Below, in pieces: positions 1 to 10,253 of a stretch of DNA of 10,304 bases (position 1 is its first letter; every line of letters starts with the position of its first letter). The stretch is from a virus. The DNA is taken from the UHGV virus genome UHGV-1714029; one strand, 5' to 3'. The notes under the pieces are model-generated. The model saw only the letters and a list, made by a program, of their open reading frames with translations, made no database searches and was not told the DNA's origin. Position numbers and translations under genes: made by a program.

Positions 1-74
1 ATGAAGTGAACGGTATTTCCCGCGTGGTGTATGACATCAGCGGCAAGCCGCCAGCGACTATTGAGTGGGAATGA
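1..74 (+). CDS. guaA: GMP synthase C-terminal end (host gene, 5' part outside window)
   Basis: Frame 3 translates to EVNGISRVVYDISGKPPATIEWE followed by TGA at 72-74; I recognise this as the conserved C-terminal tail of enterobacterial GuaA. An intrinsic terminator follows. Confidence 0.75.
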   Translation, partial: EVNGISRVVYDISGKPPATIEWE

Positions 75-122
75 TTAACAGCTAACTCATAGCAAGTCAT
101 TCCTATTCAGATGCTAATTCAA

Positions 123-153
123 CCCTCTGTTTTTACAGGGGGTTTTTGTTTTT
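123..153 (+). terminator. Rho-independent terminator downstream of guaA
   Basis: Stem CCCTCTG (123-129) pairs with CAGGGGG (136-142) with one G-U wobble, 6-nt loop, then TTTTTGTTTTT. Confidence 0.6.
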
Positions 154-202
154 ATGTATTCATTTCTATTCACTCTATACCATATTTTTCGGCGGTACAG
201 GT

Positions 203-238
203 GACGGTATTACCTTAAAGGTATACTCTCATACCGTC
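203..238. promoter_or_regulatory. Nested dyad-symmetry element upstream of int, containing an operator-like TTACC-N5-GGTAT site
   Basis: 8-bp inverted repeat GACGGTAT (203-210) / ATACCGTC (231-238) encloses TTACC-ttaaa-GGTAT (210-224), a 9/10 match to the palindrome found at the other phage promoters. Confidence 0.35.
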
Positions 239-266
239 ATGAAAATGGTTTCTATACGGGTGAATT

Positions 267-1517
267 GTGCTTACCGATACAAAATTAAAAAACCTCAAGC
301 CGCAGGACAAACTATACAAAGTCTCCGATCGTGACGGGCTGTATGTAGCTGTGCTTACGTCCGGTACGGTCTCGTTTCGCTATGACTACCGTATCAACGG
401 TCGCCGCGAAACACTGGTAATCGGGCAGTATGGGCGTGACGGTATCAGCCTGGCAGAAGCGCGGGAAGAACTGATTGCTGCAAAGAAGCTTCTTAAAGCA
501 GGCCAGTCGCCGGCTGCGGCTAAACGTGACGGTATCAAAAAGATTCGTGGTGCCGAGACGTTTGCGGTACATACCGACAGTTATATGAAACACGTCATCC
601 TGGCTGACAGTACCCGCGCAATGAAGCAGGCGGTGATCGACCGTGACATATTTCCGGTTCTTGGCAACAAAATGATGGCTGAAATTACCACATTGATGGT
701 TCGTGATTTGTGTGACCGGATTGTCGAACGCGGTGGTCGGGCAACAGCAGTACAGGCCAGGGAAATCATCAGCAGCGTATACCGTTACGCCAATGACCGT
801 GGTCATGGTTTGTTTAATCCTGCGGCTGACATTAAACCTTCGTCTATCGCCATATTTAAACCACGAGAGCGAACACTGACACCAGAAGAAATTGGCCTGT
901 TCTTCCGTACGCTGGATGCCATTGGTGCTATGGGCACTATGAAAATGGCTTTAAAGCTGGTGCTTATCACTATGGTTCGTAAAGGCGAATTCACCAATGC
1001 AACGTGGGATGAAATAGATTTTAAAAAATGGACATGGACAATTCCTTCAGACCGCATGAAGGGAAGCCGGGCGCACGTTATTTACCTGCCTAAACAGGCA
1101 CAGGATATATTGGTTGGGTTGCAGATGTGCGCTGGTGGAAGTGAATATCTGGTTCCTGGTCGTTACAATTTCCGGAAGCCATTATCTAATGCCGCGCTGA
1201 ACTCTCTGATCGACAGAACGGTGAAAATAATAAATGAAGATGGTGAGCATATTCAGGGCTTCACCGTACACGATATGCGCCGTACAGCCAGTACGTTGTT
1301 GCATGAGGCTGGTTATCCTTCAGACTGGATTGAAAAGGCTCTGGCACATGAGCAGAAAGGTGTGCGCGCCGTATATAACAAAGCGGAATACGCCAGACAG
1401 CGCGCCTACATGTTGCAGCAGTGGGCCGATATGATCGATTCCTGGATTGACGGGGAGCATACGGATCTGATTCCGTTCTCCCCGTCGAAGTTTGAGAAGT
1501 GGATGGCGGGGGAATAA
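267..1517 (+). CDS. int: Tyrosine site-specific integrase (P4/IntS-like phage integrase)
   Basis: GTG start at 267. N-terminus LTDTKLKNLKPQDKLYKVSDRDGLYVAV is typical of the integrase arm-binding domain; C-terminal catalytic region has HDMRRTASTLLHEAG (H-x-x-R) and a downstream Tyr (VYNKAEY). 416 aa. Confidence 0.9.
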   Translation: MLTDTKLKNLKPQDKLYKVSDRDGLYVAVLTSGTVSFRYDYRINGRRETLVIGQYGRDGISLAEAREELIAAKKLLKAGQSPAAAKRDGIKKIRGAETFAVHTDSYMKHVILADSTRAMKQAVIDRDIFPVLGNKMMAEITTLMVRDLCDRIVERGGRATAVQAREIISSVYRYANDRGHGLFNPAADIKPSSIAIFKPRERTLTPEEIGLFFRTLDAIGAMGTMKMALKLVLITMVRKGEFTNATWDEIDFKKWTWTIPSDRMKGSRAHVIYLPKQAQDILVGLQMCAGGSEYLVPGRYNFRKPLSNAALNSLIDRTVKIINEDGEHIQGFTVHDMRRTASTLLHEAGYPSDWIEKALAHEQKGVRAVYNKAEYARQRAYMLQQWADMIDSWIDGEHTDLIPFSPSKFEKWMAGE

Positions 1518-1520
1518 CGT

Positions 1521-1715
1521 TTAATTATTCTGCTGATTTTCTTCCATCTCGGCTTCTGCTGCCAGTGATTCAATTTTATCTGTGAATATTGCTGACAGTG
1601 TTGCAAATTCAGCATCAGTGACAGCGGGAATTGGAACAAACCTGATCCCGCTGTGTGCAAGCATGTTTGCAGTTTCAAGGCATTTCCTTAAATCTGCTGG
1701 TGATGCCCTGTTCAT
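1521..1715 (-). CDS. Hypothetical small acidic protein (64 aa), last gene of leftward operon
   Basis: ATG at 1715-1713 overlaps the methyltransferase TGA stop (ATGA coupling). Protein MNRASPADLRKCLETANMLAHSGIRFVPIPAVTDAEF... with acidic C-terminus. The longer 104-aa form in the ORF track would overlap the methyltransferase by about 120 nt. Confidence 0.45.
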   Translation of the reverse strand: MNRASPADLRKCLETANMLAHSGIRFVPIPAVTDAEFATLSAIFTDKIESLAAEAEMEENQQNN

Positions 1716-2362
1716 GCTGCACGCTCCCGCCCCTGGTTGTCTGTTGGTGACAGCGGAGAATTGCTGAATGCATTTGTTAATCCGCCAATATCCAACGCGT
1801 ATCCAGGGTGTAGTTGCACTGCCGGGTCTTCGCACTGATTACCCCAAACATCGAAGCCATGAGACGACTGGCGGGCGAACAGTTCAATGCGAGAAACATC
1901 GCCTAACAATTGCACAAGTTTTTCACGAACGACATCTGGTTTTCTTGAATGCTCAAGCCGCGGTGCGGTAAATGATTGAACGATCCCTGCATTAATGCGC
2001 GGAGGTAGTTTTCCCTTTACTGCAAACAGGCAATATTCACTATTTGCGCGAGTCATGTGTCCCATACCCATAACCAGTTTATCTGGTTGTCGACTACCAC
2101 ATTTTATCCACGTGAAGCCCTTCATGGTCATCAGACGGAATCCCCAGGCTTCAACAACTTTTAGCGCTTCGAGTGGTTGTGTTGGCACCCACCACATTGC
2201 CAACAGACAGTTTTCATCGGCCAAATCCCACACAGGAAGGCGGCAGATATCCAGCACACTCATAACCGGATATTTAAAACCGGCACCGCGATTACCATCT
2301 GCGGCTTTGTCCCGGTATACCCAGGGGGGATCTGCATAGATTAGTGTGTATTTCTTAGTCAT
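1712..2362 (-). CDS. MT-A70 family DNA N6-adenine methyltransferase (orphan, phage-encoded)
   Basis: Catalytic motif DPPW in YTLIYADPPWVY, plus downstream motifs (LAMWWVP, EAWGF, EHSRKP, RIELFAR). ATG at 2362 is preceded by GGTGG; the ORF-track GTG at 2374 is a less likely start. Confidence 0.85.
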   Translation of the reverse strand: MTKKYTLIYADPPWVYRDKAADGNRGAGFKYPVMSVLDICRLPVWDLADENCLLAMWWVPTQPLEALKVVEAWGFRLMTMKGFTWIKCGSRQPDKLVMGMGHMTRANSEYCLFAVKGKLPPRINAGIVQSFTAPRLEHSRKPDVVREKLVQLLGDVSRIELFARQSSHGFDVWGNQCEDPAVQLHPGYALDIGGLTNAFSNSPLSPTDNQGRERAA

Positions 2363-2654
2363 AAACCACCCCACAACATCCTATGCCGCTATAGTCGCCA
2401 CGGCGAAGGCCGTTACCTTTTGTGATACATTGGTCCCTGCGAACCGCGATCCTTGCACGCTCAACATCACCAGAAGCAACATCCATACACTGAAGCCAAA
2501 GGTGGGCGGCAATGCGGAACTGCCCTTTTTTCTCTCTTTCAATCGCGCGTTTTTCGATCTCTATCGCCGCAGGAGTAACGGCAACAACCTTTGAAGGGCT
2601 GCGCATTGAAACCTTGTTCATGTGATATTTTTCAAGTCGGCTTAACTTTCTCAC
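2355..2654 (-). CDS. Hypothetical protein, translationally coupled to the methyltransferase
   Basis: ORF ends ...GVVYD with TAA overlapping the methyltransferase ATG (ATGACTAA). Start is uncertain: GTG 2654 with an AGAGGG SD 9 nt upstream, or internal ATG at 2621 or 2606. No recognisable domain. Confidence 0.55.
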   Translation of the reverse strand: MRKLSRLEKYHMNKVSMRSPSKVVAVTPAAIEIEKRAIEREKKGQFRIAAHLWLQCMDVASGDVERARIAVRRDQCITKGNGLRRGDYSGIGCCGVVYD

Positions 2655-2710
2655 TTAATCCAACCCTCTCTGAAAATTAATGCCAGCAGATAAAGCCATG
2701 CTGAAACAGA

Positions 2711-2736
2711 GGTCAGGAATAAGTACCATCCTGACC
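2711..2736 (-). terminator. Hairpin downstream of the AlpA-like gene, possible weak terminator or attenuator
   Basis: Perfect 8-bp inverted repeat GGTCAGGA (2711-2718) / TCCTGACC (2729-2736) with 10-nt loop. On the minus-strand transcript it is followed by UCUGUUUC, a weak U-tract. Confidence 0.25.
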
Positions 2737-2763
2737 ATTTGCTCCAGTGCCTTAGCAGCACAC

Positions 2764-3012
2764 TCATGCCGCGTTGCTCACAGGACGATATACACGTTGC
2801 TGAACAGGAGGTTTTTTACCCTGGAACTCTGCCGGGCTTGCTGCCTGACGTTCATCAAGCCAACGCTCAACTTCGTCACGGTTCCATGCGCAGCGTTTGT
2901 CAGTGATATACCAGCGTTTAGGAAATTCACCTGCGCGCTCCATACGGTCGATAGTGCTCCATGACAGTGGCACCACCGCCAGGAGTTCCTTCTTACCTAA
3001 TGCACCTTTCAT
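2764..3012 (-). CDS. AlpA-family helix-turn-helix regulator / excisionase-like protein
   Basis: 82 aa. LLAVVPLSWSTIDRMERAGEFPKRWYITDKRCAWNRDEVERWLDE matches the AlpA/Vis-type winged-HTH pattern. SD AGAGAGG sits 5-6 nt upstream of ATG 3012. Confidence 0.75.
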   Translation of the reverse strand: MKGALGKKELLAVVPLSWSTIDRMERAGEFPKRWYITDKRCAWNRDEVERWLDERQAASPAEFQGKKPPVQQRVYRPVSNAA

Positions 3013-3034
3013 AAATACCTCTCTTGGTTGCAGT

Positions 3035-3053
3035 GCGGCGCGTGTGGCGCCGC
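3035..3053 (-). other. GC-only hairpin between recT stop and the AlpA-like start
   Basis: GCGGCGC (3035-3041) and GCGCCGC (3047-3053) form a perfect 7-bp stem with a 5-nt loop. No U-tract on either strand. Confidence 0.4.
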
Positions 3054-3061
3054 GGTGGTGG

Positions 3062-4084
3062 TTACTCGAATTCTGGACGCATATCGTTAAGCGTCATCAT
3101 GAATTTTTGGTGATATTCATCACCGAGCTTGTCAGCCATGGTGTTAATTTCATTTTCAGCGCGCTTGAACATCGTTTTTGCATCTTCAGCAGATGGATCC
3201 AGGCTATTAAGTATCGCGATGATATATTCTCGAGCTTCTTCTCGTTCTGAATCTGAAATTGGCGATAGGTGTTGACGCTCATCGTCAACTACGGAATATT
3301 CACCAGTGATAACAGCTGCGTTATCTTGGCTAAGTCCAGCTTCAGCGCGCTCATCCATAACAACAGCCTTCTGCATTTCAATAGAAACAGGAAGATATTT
3401 GAACAGTCGGCGAATTACTGTTTTTTTAGCCATCTCATCGAAGTGATCAACCCATGGGCCACTGCTACCGGCTTTGCTCAGTGCACGAACTTTCTCAACG
3501 TCTGCCCGGCTCATAACTTCAAATTGGACACCGCCATCTTTCAGTCGGGCAACGGCGTAAACGTGCGTTAGTTCTCCGCGGTCACCTGTTTCGCAAGGTA
3601 AATGCTCGAGCGTTTCTTCCAGGCCGTATGAGTAGCTGAATTTGTCGTTTGTATGTACGGTACGAGCCGAGATGCTCAGGATCTGCCCTGAGCGGCGGGC
3701 AAGGTCAATCATTCCGCGATAGCCGATAATCAGCTGTGCTTCTGTAGATACGGTTTCCCATCTTCCATTTACTTTCTGGCGTTTGTCGAACGGTATCAGG
3801 TAAGCGTGTCCAAGAGCTCCGCCTGGTTCAAGACCCAATTGGGCACATTGCATAATTGCCCCCAGGAAGCTGGCTTGGTCGCATGATGCAAGTTTTGGAA
3901 CCTTTCGGATCTCTGTGGTTGCTATGCGCGCCAGACGGTCTGCTGTCATGTGCTTTGGAAGTGCCAAAGCCATCTGAGCTTTAATTTTTGGGTCTGCCAG
4001 AAGTCCGGCCAGAGTTGTTGGTTTCTCATTATGATGTGCAACTTGGTTACCGGTAGCCGCTGCCTTAAGTGCATTGATAGACAT
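3062..4084 (-). CDS. recT: RecT family single-strand annealing recombinase
   Basis: 340 aa. Strong resemblance to RecT across the core (IATTEIRKVP, GAIMQCAQLGLEPG, GHAYLIPF, IIGYRGMIDLARRSGQ, THVYAVARLKDGG, EMAKKTVIRRLFKYLPVSIE). Strong SD AAGGAG before ATG 4084. Confidence 0.92.
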   Translation of the reverse strand: MSINALKAAATGNQVAHHNEKPTTLAGLLADPKIKAQMALALPKHMTADRLARIATTEIRKVPKLASCDQASFLGAIMQCAQLGLEPGGALGHAYLIPFDKRQKVNGRWETVSTEAQLIIGYRGMIDLARRSGQILSISARTVHTNDKFSYSYGLEETLEHLPCETGDRGELTHVYAVARLKDGGVQFEVMSRADVEKVRALSKAGSSGPWVDHFDEMAKKTVIRRLFKYLPVSIEMQKAVVMDERAEAGLSQDNAAVITGEYSVVDDERQHLSPISDSEREEAREYIIAILNSLDPSAEDAKTMFKRAENEINTMADKLGDEYHQKFMMTLNDMRPEFE

Positions 4085-4093
4085 TTTTTCTCC

Positions 4094-4993
4094 TTACTTC
4101 ATTCTGAAGACGCGTTGTGTCGTTGTTGTTTTGAATTTTTCGAATAACTCAGGGTGTACTGACTGGAATAGCTTCTGGTCGAATCTGTTGCTGATCTGAG
4201 ATTTCCATGTGCAGAGCGGCTTTCCGTCCAGGGTCAGGACTGAATGCTCTTGCATGTACATCTTCAGCTTCTCTTCTGATATAGCTATTTCTTCTTCCAG
4301 TGATTTTCTGCGTGACTTCATGTCTCGTAGATCGTTGAATAGTGCGAGTGCCTTTCCGTCAGCCTCGATACTTGTCCCGGCATCTTTCTCAAACATCAGC
4401 GATACATCGCTTACGCTGGTAGCTTCCGGCGGGTTAAGATTTTTCACTCGGTCCCAGAAAGCGATTTCTTTTTCTAAGATCGCCTGGATAGTTTCTTCAT
4501 CACGCTCAACCCGATAGATTCGGAAGTCGTCGCCACCGATAAGCACACCGAAAACGCATACCTGTTTGTTTGTAACCATCAACCCATGCATGGCCTGGGC
4601 CGTGTAATGCACAGGAATTGCATCTGTCTGGATTTCTCCCCATTCTTTGGCTTTGAACGGGCTAACTGTTTTGATCTCAATGTTCTCTCCTGACGCTGCT
4701 TCTGCATCGATCTCAGCTGCAATAAAATCGTAATCACGGTGGATATAGCGGTTTCCGCGATGAACGATTTCCATCCCTGTTTCCTCAGAAAGCAGGTCTA
4801 TTACGTATGGCTCCATACGCTGGCCACGCGTGAAAACTTTCTGCTTGCTTGGGTCTACTGGTTTGACACGTGGCTGGACCTTATCCAGATAAACCTCAAG
4901 CGGGGTGCGCCATGGGCTAATTCCAAGAATCCCTGCAACATCGCTTCCTCCGATGTATTTTCTTCTATCCATGATTCCAGCGTTCCGCATCAT
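4094..4993 (-). CDS. YqaJ-like (lambda Exo / RecE-type) recombination exonuclease, partner of RecT
   Basis: N-terminal YIGGSDVAGILGISPWRTPLEVY is the YqaJ signature. PD-(D/E)xK-like residues in DFIAAEIDAE...IEIKTV. ATG 4993 overlaps the upstream gene stop (ATGA); an alternative ATG lies 7 codons in. Confidence 0.85.
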   Translation of the reverse strand: MMRNAGIMDRRKYIGGSDVAGILGISPWRTPLEVYLDKVQPRVKPVDPSKQKVFTRGQRMEPYVIDLLSEETGMEIVHRGNRYIHRDYDFIAAEIDAEAASGENIEIKTVSPFKAKEWGEIQTDAIPVHYTAQAMHGLMVTNKQVCVFGVLIGGDDFRIYRVERDEETIQAILEKEIAFWDRVKNLNPPEATSVSDVSLMFEKDAGTSIEADGKALALFNDLRDMKSRRKSLEEEIAISEEKLKMYMQEHSVLTLDGKPLCTWKSQISNRFDQKLFQSVHPELFEKFKTTTTQRVFRMK

Positions 4994-5289
4994 GCCGCGT
5001 CCCTCTGCCCATCAATCCGATCCGCCAGATCCCAGCGGGCGATAATTGCCATTGCCTCGCGCCGGTAGGCATCCATTAGTTCTTCGAACTCAGGGCTGTC
5101 TTTAGCGGCCTCCAGTACTTCCTGGCGAACGCCTTTGCCTGTTACAACGTCGAAAGTTGAGGCCAGTTGATGAAGCCGGATACTCTCAATCAGTTCAACT
5201 TGTCGGTCATATAGCTGTTCTGACAGGCAGTAGTCCTTGTCGAATGCCAGCATGATTTTTTGAAGATTTTTCTGCTGATTAACGTTCAT
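4990..5289 (-). CDS. Small protein in the Gam/RacC position (possible host-nuclease inhibitor)
   Basis: 99 aa starting MNVNQQKNL at ATG 5289, 6 nt after a GGGAGGG SD. Sits directly upstream of exo-recT as gam does in lambda. C-terminal EFEELMDAYRREAMAIIARW weakly resembles the lambda Gam C-terminus, by recollection only. Confidence 0.6.
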   Translation of the reverse strand: MNVNQQKNLQKIMLAFDKDYCLSEQLYDRQVELIESIRLHQLASTFDVVTGKGVRQEVLEAAKDSPEFEELMDAYRREAMAIIARWDLADRIDGQRDAA

Positions 5290-5291
5290 TA

Positions 5292-5444
5292 TCAGCCCTC
5301 CCATATCTCGTTATCGTTGGCCACATCGCGAGCTTCTTTGCTGACGAAAGCCCACTTAATGCCTTCCTGTAAGGTGCGGAACTTCCAGCTCATGAATCCG
5401 CATGCAGTAACGCAGTACCAACCGTTGATGATTTTCCACTGCAT
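5292..5444 (-). CDS. Unreported 50-aa Trp-rich ORF, first gene of the leftward early operon (Kil position)
   Basis: Not in the ORF track (under 60 aa). ATG 5444-5442 with SD GAGGT 8 nt upstream; translation MQWKIINGWYCVTACGFMSWKFRTLQEGIKWAFVSKEARDVANDNEIWEG; TGA at 5294-5292, 2 nt before the next gene's ATG. Confidence 0.4.
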   Translation of the reverse strand: MQWKIINGWYCVTACGFMSWKFRTLQEGIKWAFVSKEARDVANDNEIWEG

Positions 5445-5463
5445 AATTTGTTACCTCGGTCTG

Positions 5464-5540
5464 TTACCGTTGAGGTAATGATTATGCGTATTTGGTTTGA
5501 TGTCAATAGATATGAGTTAAAAAAATTACCCATAAGGTAA
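5464..5540 (-). promoter_or_regulatory. Leftward early promoter region with two operator palindromes (OL-like)
   Basis: Perfect TTACC-N5-GGTAA at 5464-5478 and 5526-5540, flanking a perfect minus-strand -35 hexamer TTGACA (5506-5501). A -10-like CATAAT / TAATCA lies 14-16 nt downstream, overlapping the 5464 site. Confidence 0.5.
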
Positions 5541-5550
5541 TCTTGATGGC

Positions 5551-5577
5551 AATAAAAAAGCCGCCATGAGGCGGCTT
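5551..5577 (-). terminator. Rho-independent terminator of the repressor-like gene
   Basis: Minus-strand transcript reads AGCCGCC-UCAU-GGCGGCU followed by UUUUUUAUU, about 20 nt after the TAA stop at 5600-5598. Confidence 0.65.
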
Positions 5578-5597
5578 ACTTGCTGAAAACTATAGTT

Positions 5598-6182
5598 TTA
5601 TTGTTTATTTTTTTCGTTCTGGTTGATGACAAATTCAATGTAACTTTCGATCTTTGCTTTCTCGGTTTCGGGTAACAATGCGTAGCGCGAGCGGTCATAG
5701 TTGATGGTCGCAGGGTCGTGCGGGTGAATCAGTAATTCATAGCCGTGACGCCCGAATGCGGATGCAACATTCTCCAGGGTGGAAATGGAAACGCTGACTT
5801 CATTGTTTAACAGGCGGCTGATTGTCACCTGGGCGACGCCGGATGCGCGGTGAAGTTTTCCTTGTGTTGAAAGGTCGCGGCTTTCGCTCATCCAGCGTTC
5901 CAGGTTGTGAGCCGCCAGCTGACCAATGTCGCTTGGTCCGACAGGCTGAAAACCCTCCTGAGAAAGCGAGCGATCGATATCAAGCCAGTTACGTGGTTTA
6001 TTGGCGGCAGCTTCAATTTTTCGCGCAACCTGGTCGCCGATAACCTTCTTGCCAAGAGCCCAGCGGTTTACCAGATTTGCCTGAGTTCCAAGTTTTTCTG
6101 CCATCCGCGTCTGAACACCATTGAATTCACGGTCGATCAAGTCGTTGAGATTTTGCCTGCGGACGTCCTGGATACTTTTCAT
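5598..6182 (-). CDS. Repressor-like protein with two HTH (XRE/Cro-C1 type) domains and no S24 peptidase domain
   Basis: 194 aa. HTH 1 around TRMAEKLGTQANLVNRWALGKKVIGDQVARKIEAA; HTH 2 around ASGVAQVTISRLLNNEVSVSISTLENVASAFG. No Ala-Gly cleavage site or Ser/Lys dyad region. Divergent from a Cro-like gene across an operator-rich spacer. Confidence 0.7.
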   Translation of the reverse strand: MKSIQDVRRQNLNDLIDREFNGVQTRMAEKLGTQANLVNRWALGKKVIGDQVARKIEAAANKPRNWLDIDRSLSQEGFQPVGPSDIGQLAAHNLERWMSESRDLSTQGKLHRASGVAQVTISRLLNNEVSVSISTLENVASAFGRHGYELLIHPHDPATINYDRSRYALLPETEKAKIESYIEFVINQNEKNKQ

Positions 6183-6237
6183 TTTCTGGAAAATCGTCTC
6201 ATATATGAATCAGTAGATGATTCAATTTAAAGCAATA

Positions 6238-6300
6238 TTACCCAACAGGTAAATGCACCTCATAGGTAACTATCCTTGATTTTTGTTACCTTATGGGTGA
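6238..6300. promoter_or_regulatory. Divergent immunity-region operator cluster (OR-like, three sites)
   Basis: TTACC-caaca-GGTAA at 6238-6252 (perfect), GCACC-tcata-GGTAA at 6255-6269 (8/10), TTACC-ttatg-GGTGA at 6286-6300 (9/10), lying between the repressor-like ATG (6182, minus) and the Cro-like ATG (6337, plus). Confidence 0.55.
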
Positions 6301-6336
6301 ATATTTATTATCTGAAATAAATATCAGGCAATAGCT

Positions 6337-6567
6337 ATGAGCGATAACGGACATTTCGATTTCAAAAAGCACTGGCTTGCACTTACTCCGGATGAGCGTG
6401 AAGCCTTCGCACAGGAAGCCGGAACGACGAGTCACTATATCCAGACTCACTTAACAGGTAAGCGCAAAATGCCAGGTAAAGTATTGATGAATGGGCTTTT
6501 TAAAGCCTGTAAAACAAGACAATGGCTGCGCTCAAAAGCAGAACTGGCATACTTCTTCTACTCATGA
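6337..6567 (+). CDS. Cro-like HTH regulator (first gene of rightward early operon)
   Basis: 76 aa with an XRE-type HTH (FAQEAGTTSHYIQTHLTGKRKMP). Divergent from the repressor-like gene and followed by an intrinsic terminator. Confidence 0.6.
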   Translation: MSDNGHFDFKKHWLALTPDEREAFAQEAGTTSHYIQTHLTGKRKMPGKVLMNGLFKACKTRQWLRSKAELAYFFYS

Positions 6568-6588
6568 TATCCAGCTACAACCCTCTGT

Positions 6589-6611
6589 AGACCGCCACCC
6601 GGCGGTCTTTT
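6589..6611 (+). terminator. Rho-independent terminator after the Cro-like gene (tR1-like)
   Basis: AGACCGCC (6589-6596) and GGCGGTCT (6601-6608) form a perfect 8-bp stem with loop ACCC, followed by TTTT. Confidence 0.65.
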
Positions 6612-6622
6612 CATATCTATTC

Positions 6623-6637
6623 GTACCTCAAAGGTAA
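6623..6637. promoter_or_regulatory. Operator-like palindrome downstream of the tR1-like terminator
   Basis: GTACC-tcaaa-GGTAA, a 9/10 match to the TTACC-N5-GGTAA motif, about 80 nt upstream of the next gene. Confidence 0.4.
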
Positions 6638-6717
6638 TAAAAAACCAAATCTGGTTGATCTTTTTTTTGTGTCAGCACAAAATAACCGTAATCCCAATAC
6701 TAATAACAGGGCTTACC

Positions 6718-6918
6718 ATGGAAATCATTACACGTATTGATGCCGCAAAGCGCGGACTTAAACGCTATTACACCGGAAAACAATGTAAGCACGGACATGA
6801 CAGTGAACGCTGGGTTTACAACGGACACTGTGTTGAGTGCACCATGGAATCAAACCGTCGCATCAGGGCAGAGATTAAGCAGATCATGATTAATTCCTCC
6901 CCACAACATTCAAGCTGA
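6718..6918 (+). CDS. Small Cys/His-rich protein (putative zinc-binding regulator, cII position)
   Basis: 66 aa from ATG 6718 (SD AGGG 6 nt upstream): MEIITRIDAAKRGLKRYYTGKQCKHGHDSERWVYNGHCVEC... with a C-x-H-x-H ... H-C-x-x-C arrangement. The TTG-initiated 87-aa form in the ORF track is unlikely. Confidence 0.55.
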   Translation: MEIITRIDAAKRGLKRYYTGKQCKHGHDSERWVYNGHCVECTMESNRRIRAEIKQIMINSSPQHSS

Positions 6919-6933
6919 TAGCGGAGATTAATC

Positions 6934-7749
6934 ATGAGCAGACATGCAACAGATTGGGCCTGGGAGACAGATCCAGGTAGCTCGTCATTAAAGCTCATAC
7001 TGCTCTCGATGGCTGACAGAGCCGATGAATATAACCTCTGCTACCCCAGCATAGAACGCCTCGTTAAAGACACTTGCCTGAATAAAAAAACCGTGCAGGC
7101 CGGGCTTATATCGCTCATGAAAATGGGTCTTATTTCAGATACCGGAGAGAGAAAGGGGGCGACGAAAAGAGTACGGGTTTTCTCTCTTAATATAACCAAA
7201 AACGGGAACATTAAAGGCGACCGGGAGGGGGGTAATGAACCCGAAAACGGTAATGAACCCGAAAACGGGAATATACCCAAAAACGGGATGTTGAATGATC
7301 CCAAAAACGGGATGTTGAATGATCCCAAAAACGGGATCCAGAACCAGTCATATAACCAGTCATTTAACCAAGAGAGGGAGAGCAGGACAAAAAACGGGGA
7401 TTCTGTGCATCATGACCCCGGCGCAAACAACGCCGTGATGAATAACTTTGTTCCTCCTGGTGGGCCAGGGCAATTAGGCAAATTTGTCATGCATGAACAA
7501 TGGCAACCATCAGATGACTTTCTTCGGAAAAGCTCATTGCAGGGGATCTACCTGGACAGTCTGCCAACGGCACAGGAACTTGCAGAGTTCAGAATTTACT
7601 GGATGGCTGAGGGTAAGGCATACCATCAGGCACAGTGGGAGCAGAAGCTGGCAAGGCGGCTGCAGATTAGCAGACAGAAGCAATCAACATTATCTGATAA
7701 CAACGTTCCGCACTGGAACAGCCCTGAAGCATGGGAGGATTTCTTGTGA
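6934..7749 (+). CDS. Replication initiator, lambda O-like (N-terminal HTH domain, iteron-encoded low-complexity linker)
   Basis: N-terminus DWAWETDPGSSSLKLILLSMADRADEYNLCYPSIERLVKDTCLNKKTVQAGLISLMKMGLI is a replication-protein HTH. Middle NGNEPENGNEPENGNIPKNGMLNDPKNGMLNDPKNG is encoded by tandem DNA iterons. TGA stop overlaps the P-like GTG. Confidence 0.8.
   Translation: MSRHATDWAWETDPGSSSLKLILLSMADRADEYNLCYPSIERLVKDTCLNKKTVQAGLISLMKMGLISDTGERKGATKRVRVFSLNITKNGNIKGDREGGNEPENGNEPENGNIPKNGMLNDPKNGMLNDPKNGIQNQSYNQSFNQERESRTKNGDSVHHDPGANNAVMNNFVPPGGPGQLGKFVMHEQWQPSDDFLRKSSLQGIYLDSLPTAQELAEFRIYWMAEGKAYHQAQWEQKLARRLQISRQKQSTLSDNNVPHWNSPEAWEDFL
7196..7399. repeat. Iteron array / probable origin of replication embedded in the O-like gene
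   Basis: Seven copies of CC(C)-R-AAAACGGG: a tandem block 7231-7332 with unit lengths 18, 18, 18, 24, 24 bp, plus outliers at 7196-7206 and 7389-7399. Each has short dyad symmetry (CCCG-AAAA-CGGG), like the lambda ori iterons. Confidence 0.7.
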
Positions 7750-8531
7750 ACAACGTTTTTACCGCGATACAAAACCGTGACGGAGAAGCCCTTTCTCGCA
7801 TGTCAGGTTATGAGCATCAGTACACCAACAATGACAACGTGGTGAACATGTCAGCAGAGAGGCTTGTTGATGCCCTTTTCAAACAGCTGAAACAACTGTT
7901 TCCGGCGGCAGTGGTAACCAACCTGAAGACGCCAGAGCAGGAAGTTGCTGCAAAACAGCAGTGGATTGCTGCGTTTGCCGAAGGGGGGATCCGAACCCGT
8001 GAACAGGTTTCTGCTGGTATGCGCCACGCCCGCGCCAGTGAATCTCCGTTCTGGCCGTCGCCAGGGCAATTCATCAAGTGGTGTAAAGACAGCAAGATGG
8101 TTCTTGGCGTCACCATTGACGATGTGATGGCGGAGTTTCACCGGTACAGCAAGGAAAAAAGTTTATATCCTGGTGGTCCCGAAAGATTCCCGTGGCGACA
8201 TCCGGTTATGTACTGGGTCGTATGTGATACCCGCCGTGCAATGTATCAGCGCCAGCTTAGCGAGATTGAGGTTGAGAAACACGCGCGCAGGCTGCTCGAT
8301 GATTGGGCGAAAAAGGTGGCTTCCGGACAGCAGATACCCGATCCGGTGATCAGCATACAGGCAAAGCCAGAACCCATGAGTACGCCTCCGGACACAGGGA
8401 GAGACGTTTACCATCCACCAGGGCGAAGTTTCGGGTGCATGCCTAACGCCGCCACCCTTGGGGGAATAACACCGGCGCAGTGGCTGATGGAGGAATACAG
8501 GCGGGGAAAGGCGTCAGGATTTATCAAGTAA
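7746..8531 (+). CDS. Replication protein P-like (DnaB helicase loader, lambda P family)
   Basis: Conserved core AAKQQWIAAFAEGGIRTREQVSAGMRHARASESPFWPSPGQFIKWC resembles lambda P. GTG 7746 overlaps the O-like stop (GTGA) 6 nt after SD GGGAGGA; an in-frame ATG at 7731 is the alternative start. Confidence 0.85.
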   Translation: MNNVFTAIQNRDGEALSRMSGYEHQYTNNDNVVNMSAERLVDALFKQLKQLFPAAVVTNLKTPEQEVAAKQQWIAAFAEGGIRTREQVSAGMRHARASESPFWPSPGQFIKWCKDSKMVLGVTIDDVMAEFHRYSKEKSLYPGGPERFPWRHPVMYWVVCDTRRAMYQRQLSEIEVEKHARRLLDDWAKKVASGQQIPDPVISIQAKPEPMSTPPDTGRDVYHPPGRSFGCMPNAATLGGITPAQWLMEEYRRGKASGFIK

Positions 8532-8536
8532 TACCA

Positions 8537-8557
8537 GCGCGATAGCGCATTTTTTTA
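8537..8557 (+). terminator. Weak intrinsic terminator candidate after the P-like gene
   Basis: GCGC-GATA-GCGC, a 4-bp GC stem, followed by A and seven T residues (8549-8556). The stem is short, so this is tentative. Confidence 0.3.
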
Positions 8558-8568
8558 CGTCTCGATAA

Positions 8569-8645
8569 TTACCTTCGAGGTAATAAAATATTCTAAAATC
8601 TATTGATTTCGTGTCTTATGTGGTTTTTAATTACCTAAGGGGTAA
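8569..8645. promoter_or_regulatory. Promoter/operator region upstream of the DUF1064 gene with two perfect operator palindromes
   Basis: TTACC-ttcga-GGTAA at 8569-8583 and TTACC-taagg-GGTAA at 8631-8645; TTGATT at 8604-8609 is a possible -35. The second site overlaps the RBS of the gene starting at 8649. Confidence 0.5.
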
Positions 8646-8648
8646 ATC

Positions 8649-8993
8649 ATGAGAAAACAGATACAGGCTCTTGGTCGACTCAAAACAGGCCAGATGAACA
8701 AAACAGAATCTGCGTATTGCCAGCACCTTGAGCTGCGTAAACGTGCAGGAGAAATCGTCTGGTATCGATTTGAGGGTATCAAGCTGCGGTTAGCTGACAA
8801 CACGTTCTATACGCCCGATTTTGCTGTGATGCTCGCCACCGGCGAGATGGAACTGCACGAAGTGAAAGGTTTCTGGAGCGACGACGCCAGGGTGAAAACC
8901 AAAGTCGCCGCAGATCAGTATCCGTTCCGAATCATCGGGGTAACGGTTAAACCAAAGAAAGCAGGTGGTGGCTGGAACATCGAAAAGTTCTGA
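8649..8993 (+). CDS. DUF1064-like phage protein with PD-(D/E)xK nuclease-like motifs
   Basis: 114 aa. YTPDF followed by ELHEVKG fits a PD-(D/E)xK core (D ... E-x-K). This family is typically found next to phage replication genes. Confidence 0.7.
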   Translation: MRKQIQALGRLKTGQMNKTESAYCQHLELRKRAGEIVWYRFEGIKLRLADNTFYTPDFAVMLATGEMELHEVKGFWSDDARVKTKVAADQYPFRIIGVTVKPKKAGGGWNIEKF

Positions 8994-9054
8994 ATCGACG
9001 ATCTTTTTAGTTATCAATGTAATCAATAAGTTATGTGGATAAGCGAGGGTAAAG

Positions 9055-9657
9055 ATGGAAAGTATGGCTGAAGGTATGATCAAAGATTTAGTGGCATCAG
9101 GGCATGCGTTAGCTGACGACATGACAGGCGCACCATCCGTGCTTGTTCGCTGTTTGGCAGCGCAACTGGAAGTTCAGTTGGTGCGTGCTAATGAGCTGGC
9201 CGAAGACCACCAGAGAGCGATTGAGTCAATTAAGCAGGCTGATGCAGCTGTTAAGTTGGCACACGAGAAGTTTTCGACGCTGGCAGCGGAGAATGCGGGG
9301 CTAAAGGCGATATGTGATGACCGTCGCAGATTCATCATGAATGGGGTGCAGATGGGTTATATCAAGGTGCCAGCAGCGGAAACAGATCCAGACCTTGAGA
9401 CAATTCGCATTGCTATATCACCACAAAAGCCCATTCCAGCCACCGATGCTTTCCTGTCTGAAGTGCGGGCGCAGGGGGTGGATGCTGCTATAGAAGCTGC
9501 AAAAAATCTGGTGGCCCAAGAATATGAGTATAAGGATTTCAAAGCGGCGCAGAGTGATTGCTGTATGCACCCTGGTTCAGACCTGGTAGGGAAGGTTGAA
9601 ATGACTGAGTGGTTAGTTGACTTTGCTGCCCAGCTTCGCAAAGGAGGCAACCAGTGA
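9055..9657 (+). CDS. Hypothetical phage protein (200 aa)
   Basis: ATG 9055 with SD GAGGG 5 nt upstream; TGA stop overlaps the next gene's GTG. No recognisable catalytic motif. Confidence 0.6.
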   Translation: MESMAEGMIKDLVASGHALADDMTGAPSVLVRCLAAQLEVQLVRANELAEDHQRAIESIKQADAAVKLAHEKFSTLAAENAGLKAICDDRRRFIMNGVQMGYIKVPAAETDPDLETIRIAISPQKPIPATDAFLSEVRAQGVDAAIEAAKNLVAQEYEYKDFKAAQSDCCMHPGSDLVGKVEMTEWLVDFAAQLRKGGNQ

Positions 9658-10253
9658 GCAAGATTGATTATCAGGCACTGCGTGCTAAGGCAGAAAAAGC
9701 AACGTGTGGCGAGTGGTCGCTCGAATATGGAGAGGGCCGATTTGATGGTGATGATGCTCTAATTCATCGCGAGGCTGCTGGATATATTCCCATTTGCAGA
9801 ATTGAAGGGGCGCATCCAGAAAGCGGTTTCGATGAAGATTTCCAAATGGAACAGCAGGCCAATGCTGAATTCATCGCCGCAGCCAATCCCGCTACCGTCT
9901 TAGCGCTGCTGGGCGAGCTGGAAGCAGAGGCAGTTATGTTCTGTATATCAGGACAAAATGTAGATTCAGAAGAACATGTATCAACCAGCAAAGCGGTTGT
10001 TGATGCCTGGGTTGAAGAATGGAATCAGGTTGACGGAAGTCCTGGCGAACCACTGTACAAAACTATGCCACTCTACTATCACGCTGCCTTGCCAGCGCCG
10101 GTAGTGCCGGAAGGGCTTGTTAAAGCGGTACGCTTTTATGAACAGGTAAAGTGTGAGAATCCGCCAGCCGAAACCGGAGCATGGAAAGACGCTGTTGACT
10201 GGGTACTCGAAGAAGCTTGCCAGGCTGTAAACATTGGCATCAAAGGAGGGTGA
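9654..10253 (+). CDS. ead/Ea22-like family phage protein (tentative)
   Basis: GTG 9654, 6 nt after SD AAGGAGG. N-terminal IDYQALRAKAEKATCGEW and the block NAEFIAAANPATVLALLGELEAE resemble the conserved N-terminal module of ead/Ea22-like prophage proteins, as recollected. Confidence 0.55.
   Translation: MSKIDYQALRAKAEKATCGEWSLEYGEGRFDGDDALIHREAAGYIPICRIEGAHPESGFDEDFQMEQQANAEFIAAANPATVLALLGELEAEAVMFCISGQNVDSEEHVSTSKAVVDAWVEEWNQVDGSPGEPLYKTMPLYYHAALPAPVVPEGLVKAVRFYEQVKCENPPAETGAWKDAVDWVLEEACQAVNIGIKGG

Follow-up and report, generated by a model that had tools for sequence, protein, structure and literature searches.

The stretch of DNA analyzed here (10,304 nucleotides; hereafter the window) opens with the last codons of a host gene and continues into an integrase gene and further genes of phage type, the coordinates of which are collected in Table 1. 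Translation of positions 3–74 yields EVNGISRVVYDISGKPPATIEWE followed by a stop codon, i.e., the 3' end of Escherichia coli guaA. The same tail forms the annotated end of full-length guaA in the two closest records, NZ_CP122448.1 and NZ_CP196906.1, and in a megablast search the window start (1–76 or slightly less) was matched by all 5426 complete E. coli genomes. The occurrence of the window start in every E. coli genome, together with the annotation of the feature as guaA, means that the guaA-like tail on which the original prediction was built is genuine rather than a chance peptide match. From the guaA stop codon to the beginning of the integrase gene (int) the gap measures 192 bp, in agreement with the figure of about 190 bp that had been given for it.

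Table 1. Host-derived, phage-derived and shared features of the attL region, with the integration genes that follow
Feature	Position	Strand	Basis or remark
Host guaA 3' end	1..74	+	coding 3–71, TGA stop 72–74
attL core ATTGAGTGGGAATGATT	60..76	+	identical 17-mer in attR, attP and attB
Phage P' arm of attL	77..266	+	36% GC; between core and int
Inverted partial core copy	95..109	+	inverted repeat I1
Direct repeat TCATTyCTATTCA, copy 1	97..109	+	repeat family D1
Phage-borne rho-independent terminator	121..155	+	stem 121–144, then T-run; terminator scan
Direct repeat copy 2, TCATTTCTATTCA	160..172	+	63 bp after copy 1
Putative arm-type integrase site GTGACGGTAT (P' arm)	201..210	+	epsilon15 protein_bind annotation
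Inverted putative arm-type site ATACCGTCAT	231..240	-	inverted repeat I2, 9/9 bases complementary
Tyrosine integrase, epsilon15/phiV10 type	267..1517	+	GTG start, 416 aa; Pfam domains
GTGACGGTAT copy within int reading frame	436..445	+	homologous position annotated as integrase-binding in epsilon15
GTGACGGTAT copy within int reading frame	526..535	+	homologous position annotated as integrase-binding in epsilon15
AlpA-family small helix-turn-helix protein	2764..3012	-	Pfam Phage_AlpA, E 3e-5

The boundary between host and phage DNA can be delimited from both sides. Homology between the window and those E. coli genomes in which the site is empty stops at base 76, and the phage genomes, among them phiV10, vB_EcoP_ZX5, phiv142-3, PAS61 and epsilon15, align from base 60 onward. 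Thus, the end of the bacterial homology and the beginning of the phage homology, obtained in two independent searches, define a shared core at 60–76. In the guaA frame this core reads ATT GAG TGG GAA TGA TT, that is, I-E-W-E and the stop codon, with two further bases behind it; bases 60–74, the end of guaA itself, occur in the phage attP too. Strand exchange must fall within these 17 bp, and the comparison of the two kinds of genomes thereby places recombination in the 15 bases with which the guaA reading frame ends, not downstream of guaA. The core is conserved because it is protein-coding and specifies the GuaA C-terminus IEWE. Since the phage brings its own copy of the core bases, the guaA reading frame is rebuilt unchanged on integration: the C-terminus PPATIEWE, with the stop after it, is the same in the lysogen and in K-12.

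As the window ends inside the prophage, attR was read in two near-identical lysogens, strain 85.0412 (NZ_CP122448.1; L002) and ECE170 (NZ_CP196906.1; L052), whereas attP was taken from phiV10 (L003) and epsilon15 (L005) and attB from a K-12 strain (L004), with the att data for epsilon15 coming from its GenBank annotation and from secondary citations. The identical 17-mer lies at 18789 in L002 and 39865 in L052 (attR), at 1501 in L003 and 601 in L005 (attP) and at 660 in L004 (attB). The left arm of attL is identical to attB at 57 of 59 positions and to attP at 18 of 59; its right arm (77–266) agrees with phiV10 attP at 184 of 190 positions and with K-12 attB at 45 of 190 (ungapped). The left arm of attR, in turn, is identical to attP at 177 of 190 positions, and the ungapped count for its right arm is low (52/190) because this arm corresponds to the guaA–yfgI spacer of K-12 attB with one base added. 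To judge from these counts, the arms sort as Campbell-type integration predicts. The two cores are 39,897 bp apart in strain 85.0412 and 39,805 bp apart in ECE170, and attR adjoins yfgI: beyond its core come the native guaA terminator, AAAACCCTCTGTTACTACAGAGGGTTTTTT, and then yfgI. Of the two comparisons envisaged in the original prediction, that with uninterrupted guaA regions ended at 76, and that with the other prophage end revealed the duplicated core some 39.8–39.9 kb away in both lysogens.

That prediction had the prophage inserted immediately downstream of guaA, with an attL core in 75–266 that possibly lay over the guaA terminator. The prophage end beside guaA is indeed there as an attL, with phage DNA from base 77; the point of insertion has to be moved into the last codons of guaA, and the true core shares two bases only with the interval that had been proposed. 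Insertion in intergenic DNA downstream of guaA, with a core in 77–266 perhaps overlapping the terminator of that gene, has some appeal in that the hairpin at 121–144 is terminator-like and identical to the native guaA terminator at 24 of 27 positions, and anyone who sees nothing but the window could readily take it for host sequence. It is nonetheless very improbable: no empty-site genome matches past base 76, the whole of 77–266 follows the virion DNA of phiV10 at the 184 of 190 positions mentioned above, the native terminator persists intact beyond attR, and the only sequence common to attL and attR is 60–76, no second direct repeat of 77–266 having been found at the right end.

The prophage delimited in this manner is of a size (~39.8–39.9 kb) that matches the genomes of phiV10 and epsilon15 (39.1 and 39.7 kb, respectively). 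Its interval holds the full Uetakevirus set, namely terminase, portal, capsid, an epsilon15-type capsid staple, tail and lysis genes, along with a Bbp16 cement protein. ECE170 is 100% identical to the window over 1–10113 and differs in 10114–10241; strain 85.0412 is identical up to about 9650 and diverges at 9650–10232, and attL is the same in both lysogens. The region of the eae-like and ead-Ea22-like genes (9650–10241) is the only part that differs between these otherwise identical prophages, which makes it a mosaic or repeat-variable spot. Farther along in ECE170, outside the window, the prophage also carries a tRNA-Arg gene (L052, 15093–15169) and a YafO-family toxin gene (L052, 31838–32383).

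The guaA site is not the preserve of phages. The GIsul2 island has its insertion site, GAGTGGGA, in the guaA 3' end (PMC9376610), and this core corresponds to window 63–70, i.e., it lies inside the 17-mer. That GIsul2 and related islands use the same gene end, and that strain 85.0412 has its tail-fibre gene marked as a pseudogene, might speak for a non-phage genomic island of the GIsul2 kind, or for a decayed remnant, merely sharing the site with phages. Such an origin is highly unlikely in view of the complete Uetakevirus gene set encoded by the window and its continuation, of the ~97–98% identity to phiV10 over the aligned parts, and of ECE170, in which the tail-fibre gene is intact, as are both att sites. 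The backbone of GIsul2-type elements (rep, tra-related, toxin-antitoxin, ars and CR2-sul2 genes) was not encountered, the genes behind int being phage genes. In light of the four att sites and the gene content, window 1–266 is almost certainly the attL of a ~39.8–39.9 kb prophage of the phiV10/epsilon15 type (genus Uetakevirus) in E. coli, and no evidence contradicting this reading was found.

The integrase itself carries the Pfam domains Arm-DNA-bind_3 (PF13356, 4e-20), Phage_int_M (PF22022, 3e-13) and Phage_integrase (PF00589, 7e-19), so that its designation as a P4-type enzyme is upheld in the sense of a P4-like (Arm-DNA-bind_3) tyrosine integrase. Its N-terminus matches the phage and CP4-like integrase N-terminal domains of PDB 3ju0 and 3jtz, its C-terminal part matches lambda Int, and the gene has ~97–98% nucleotide identity to the corresponding region of phiV10. 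The translation contains the motifs VRKGE (237), MKGSR (264), HDMRR (335), LAHEQ (359) and VYNKAEY (369), which we assign by eye, and tentatively, to the catalytic R...K...HxxR...H...Y. A scan of 1–400 found no sigma-70-like promoter for int. The protein of the AlpA family encoded farther downstream is likely the excisionase (recombination directionality factor), to judge from its homologues, which are annotated as an "AlpA family protein" in phiV10 and as an "excisionase and transcriptional regulator" in epsilon15. Next to it on the same strand, RecT and a YqaJ-type exonuclease (3062–4084 and 4094–4993, minus strand) are separate open reading frames here and in epsilon15, and the phiV10 record has a single fused RecE/RecT coding sequence of 1761 bp.

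The association of this integrase type with guaA extends far beyond E. coli. In a survey of one genome per species, 31 related integrases reached 47% identity or more and had sufficient sequence upstream, and 30 of these (47–90% identity) sit 191–360 bp after the guaA stop codon, in gamma-, beta- and alphaproteobacteria (Enterobacterales, Aeromonadales, several betaproteobacterial families and Caulobacterales). The motif (A/C)TCGA(G/A)TGGGA(A/G) is conserved at the guaA end among them. The one exception is Rahnella sp. PCH160 (L031): its integrase is 57% identical, the 2.5 kb upstream contain no guaA, a tRNA is likewise missing, and the element may represent a tandem insertion or a different target; repeats of the GACGGTAT type and a terminator stand upstream of its integrase (L031, 2171–2500). 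In Citrobacter sedlakii (L016) and Edwardsiella piscicida (L019), GGGAA is followed by TAA, not TGA, as would be expected if in the lysogen the stop codon came from the element. These two genomes also have the same post-stop sequence and the same terminator (L016, 2295–2375; L019, 2285–2365), and they possibly harbor the same element type in two genera. In Pseudescherichia vulneris the contig starts exactly within the att core (AATGAT...; L015, 1–10), as though the assembly had broken at this repeat.

A different picture emerges at ~30% identity, where a tRNA-Cys gene is adjacent to the integrase in two relatives (L041, 2246–2319; L043, 2185–2258) and a tRNA-Leu gene (500–584) is about 500 nt away in a third (L042). 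The position of these distant relatives beside or near tRNA genes indicates that guaA specificity is that of a sub-branch within a mostly tRNA-targeting group. They also lend some color to the idea that the real target of integration is an overlooked tRNA-like or small-RNA gene 3' of guaA, in keeping with classical integrases of the P4 type. This is extremely improbable given that ARAGORN finds no tRNA or tmRNA gene in the whole window, that an Rfam scan of 1–600 with E values up to 10 returns noise only (no hit exceeding 18 bits, where the gathering scores are 37 or higher), and that the core is coding sequence for the GuaA C-terminus IEWE. The original observation that no tRNA is present at the junction is thus confirmed. 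As an attachment site within the end of guaA accords with the published behavior of this integrase cluster (PMC9782041, PMC8138268), the missing tRNA is no anomaly.

The phage DNA between the core and int was compared in an 11-sequence alignment comprising the window, the attP sites of phiV10 and epsilon15, and the junctions of eight prophages in other genera of the Enterobacterales. Conservation is concentrated in the core, in CTATTCA at 103–109 and 166–172, in the terminator stem and in a dense block at 193–239 that reads CGGTAC-AG-GTGACGGTATTACC-TTAA-AGGTATAC-TCT-CATACCGTC. The two copies of the 13-nt direct repeat flank the terminator, and their CTATTCA part is nearly invariant in these elements. 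They were also considered as candidate second sites of the core type, a reading that was set aside for want of an assignable binding protein. Within the dense block, GTGACGGTAT has eight of its ten bases invariant and one more nearly so. The GenBank record of epsilon15 annotates this sequence as bound by "integrase" four times. The window has its counterparts at the places given in Table 1, and the prophage carries one more copy in the P arm, 79 bp ahead of the attR core. The shorter GACGGTAT occurs six times in the 40-kb prophage, five of these within 480 bp of the core, against a chance expectation that we roughly estimate at ~1 in 40 kb. Annotation, clustering and conservation taken together suggest that the N-terminal domain of Int would bind the GTGACGGTAT repeats as arm-type sites; with two copies inside int, the putative array reaches ~270 bp into the very gene that it serves.

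The second conspicuous element of the arm is the rho-independent terminator, with a fold of -15.1 kcal/mol (z -4.6). The original prediction had int starting about 115 bp after the terminator of guaA: the distance stands, and the ownership has to be reversed, the hairpin at 121–144 being phage DNA that is present in the virion genomes of phiV10 and epsilon15 and annotated there as a rho-independent terminator. When 121–147 is set against the native guaA terminator (L004, 700–726), epsilon15, like the window, agrees at 24 of 27 positions and phiV10 at 25 of 27; the differences are confined to the loop and one stem position, and none of 2000 shuffles reaches the alignment score. This resemblance implies that the homology of attP and attB extends, with an interruption, past the 17-bp core. 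Most simply, the resemblance would mean that a guaA 3' flank was once captured, gave rise to the P' arm and kept its terminator. Such retention would end guaBA transcription properly and prevent read-through into int.

An additional structure is predicted around the guaA stop codon itself. In RNA, 62–76 pairs with the inverted partial core copy to form a 15-bp hairpin, the fold of 55–160 having -36.8 kcal/mol (z -5.8), and at the corresponding place the epsilon15 record bears a putative RNase III site. Pairing is retained in about 90% of cells for this hairpin across the 11 elements, in which the core is invariant and hence offers no covariation. For the hairpin and terminator together the figure is 92% of cells, a value matched by 126 of 500 shuffles, with one double change and the core again invariant. 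The conservation of the hairpin could equally reflect a DNA-binding site. From the terminator similarity and the predicted hairpin one might go further and regard the P' arm as a captured and maintained replacement of the guaA 3' UTR, by means of which lysogeny would subtly alter how the guaBA mRNA is processed, how stable it is or how its translation terminates, and hence the guanine-nucleotide supply, while shielding int from read-through. We consider this proposal rather unlikely; for the ZX5 lysogen no growth phenotype has been reported (PMC9782041).

Taken together, these features outline the probable course of integration. The tyrosine integrase almost certainly recombined the attP of the circular phage genome with the bacterial attB at the common 17-bp core, keeping the guaA frame and leaving everything from base 77 on as phage DNA. 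The phage terminator now stands where the native guaA terminator stood before the prophage displaced it, and it probably ends the guaBA transcripts in the lysogen. Int would bind the GTGACGGTAT repeats, and the AlpA-like protein would presumably direct excision.

The consequences of this interpretation matter little beyond correct annotation, and they can be stated in that spirit. In this widespread prophage family, the att core includes the guaA stop codon instead of being situated in the intergenic spacer. A match to at least 80% of window 1–266 is found in 569 of the 5426 complete E. coli genomes, such that in ~10% of them the terminator just 3' of guaA is phage DNA. The absence of a tRNA is normal for the epsilon15-type integrase cluster and does not warrant being flagged. 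The likeness of the phage and native terminators, for its part, shows on a small scale how a phage can bring a replacement 3' end for the gene that it interrupts, as is the case with tRNA-integrating phages.

The guaA attachment site of this phage family is already known and not new. In vB_EcoP_ZX5, a phage with a ~98% identical integrase described in 2022, the attP core "attgagtgggaatgatt" was located 190 bp 5' of int, an identical attB was found at the guaA 3' end, and attB, attL and attR were verified by PCR and Sanger sequencing (PMC9782041). Induction, excision and plaque formation have been shown for this relative as well, and according to its authors the same sequence had already been proven as the attP of phiV10 and epsilon15 (PMC9782041). 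A phiV10-like phage inserted in guaA has likewise been described in an O103:H25 strain (PMC3293862), and according to Smyshlyaev et al. 2021 all members of the "epsilon15 cluster", which belongs to the IntSXT subgroup of tyrosine recombinases, target the guaA 3' flank (PMC8138268).

Against this background, the window shares an identical 17-bp core with phiV10, ZX5 and epsilon15, as well as the distance of ~190 bp from core to int, the terminator and the GTGACGGTAT sites, with identities over the aligned parts of ~97–98% to phiV10 and ZX5 and ~81% to epsilon15; the alignment to phiV10 covers about 71% of the window, with 97.6% identity. The gene order of the phiV10/epsilon15 group is also shared (int, DUF1382, MT-A70, PerC, AlpA, RecT, exonuclease, repressor and replication genes), the differences from this group being only mosaic ones in accessory genes. 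With the epsilon15 cluster the integrase has in common the arm-binding N-terminal, core-binding and catalytic domains as well as the guaA 3' flank as target, no difference having been found, and it is a typical member of that cluster. A more distant parallel can be drawn with the GIsul2-type islands, which share with the window the conserved guaA end and the pairing of int with alpA, although GIsul2 is a 15-kb resistance island and not a phage. The classical P4/CP4-type elements, finally, have the same integrase architecture and likewise bring along a copy of the target's 3' end, by which the gene is rebuilt on integration; they insert at tRNA or tmRNA 3' ends, whereas here a protein-coding gene is entered at its 3' end.
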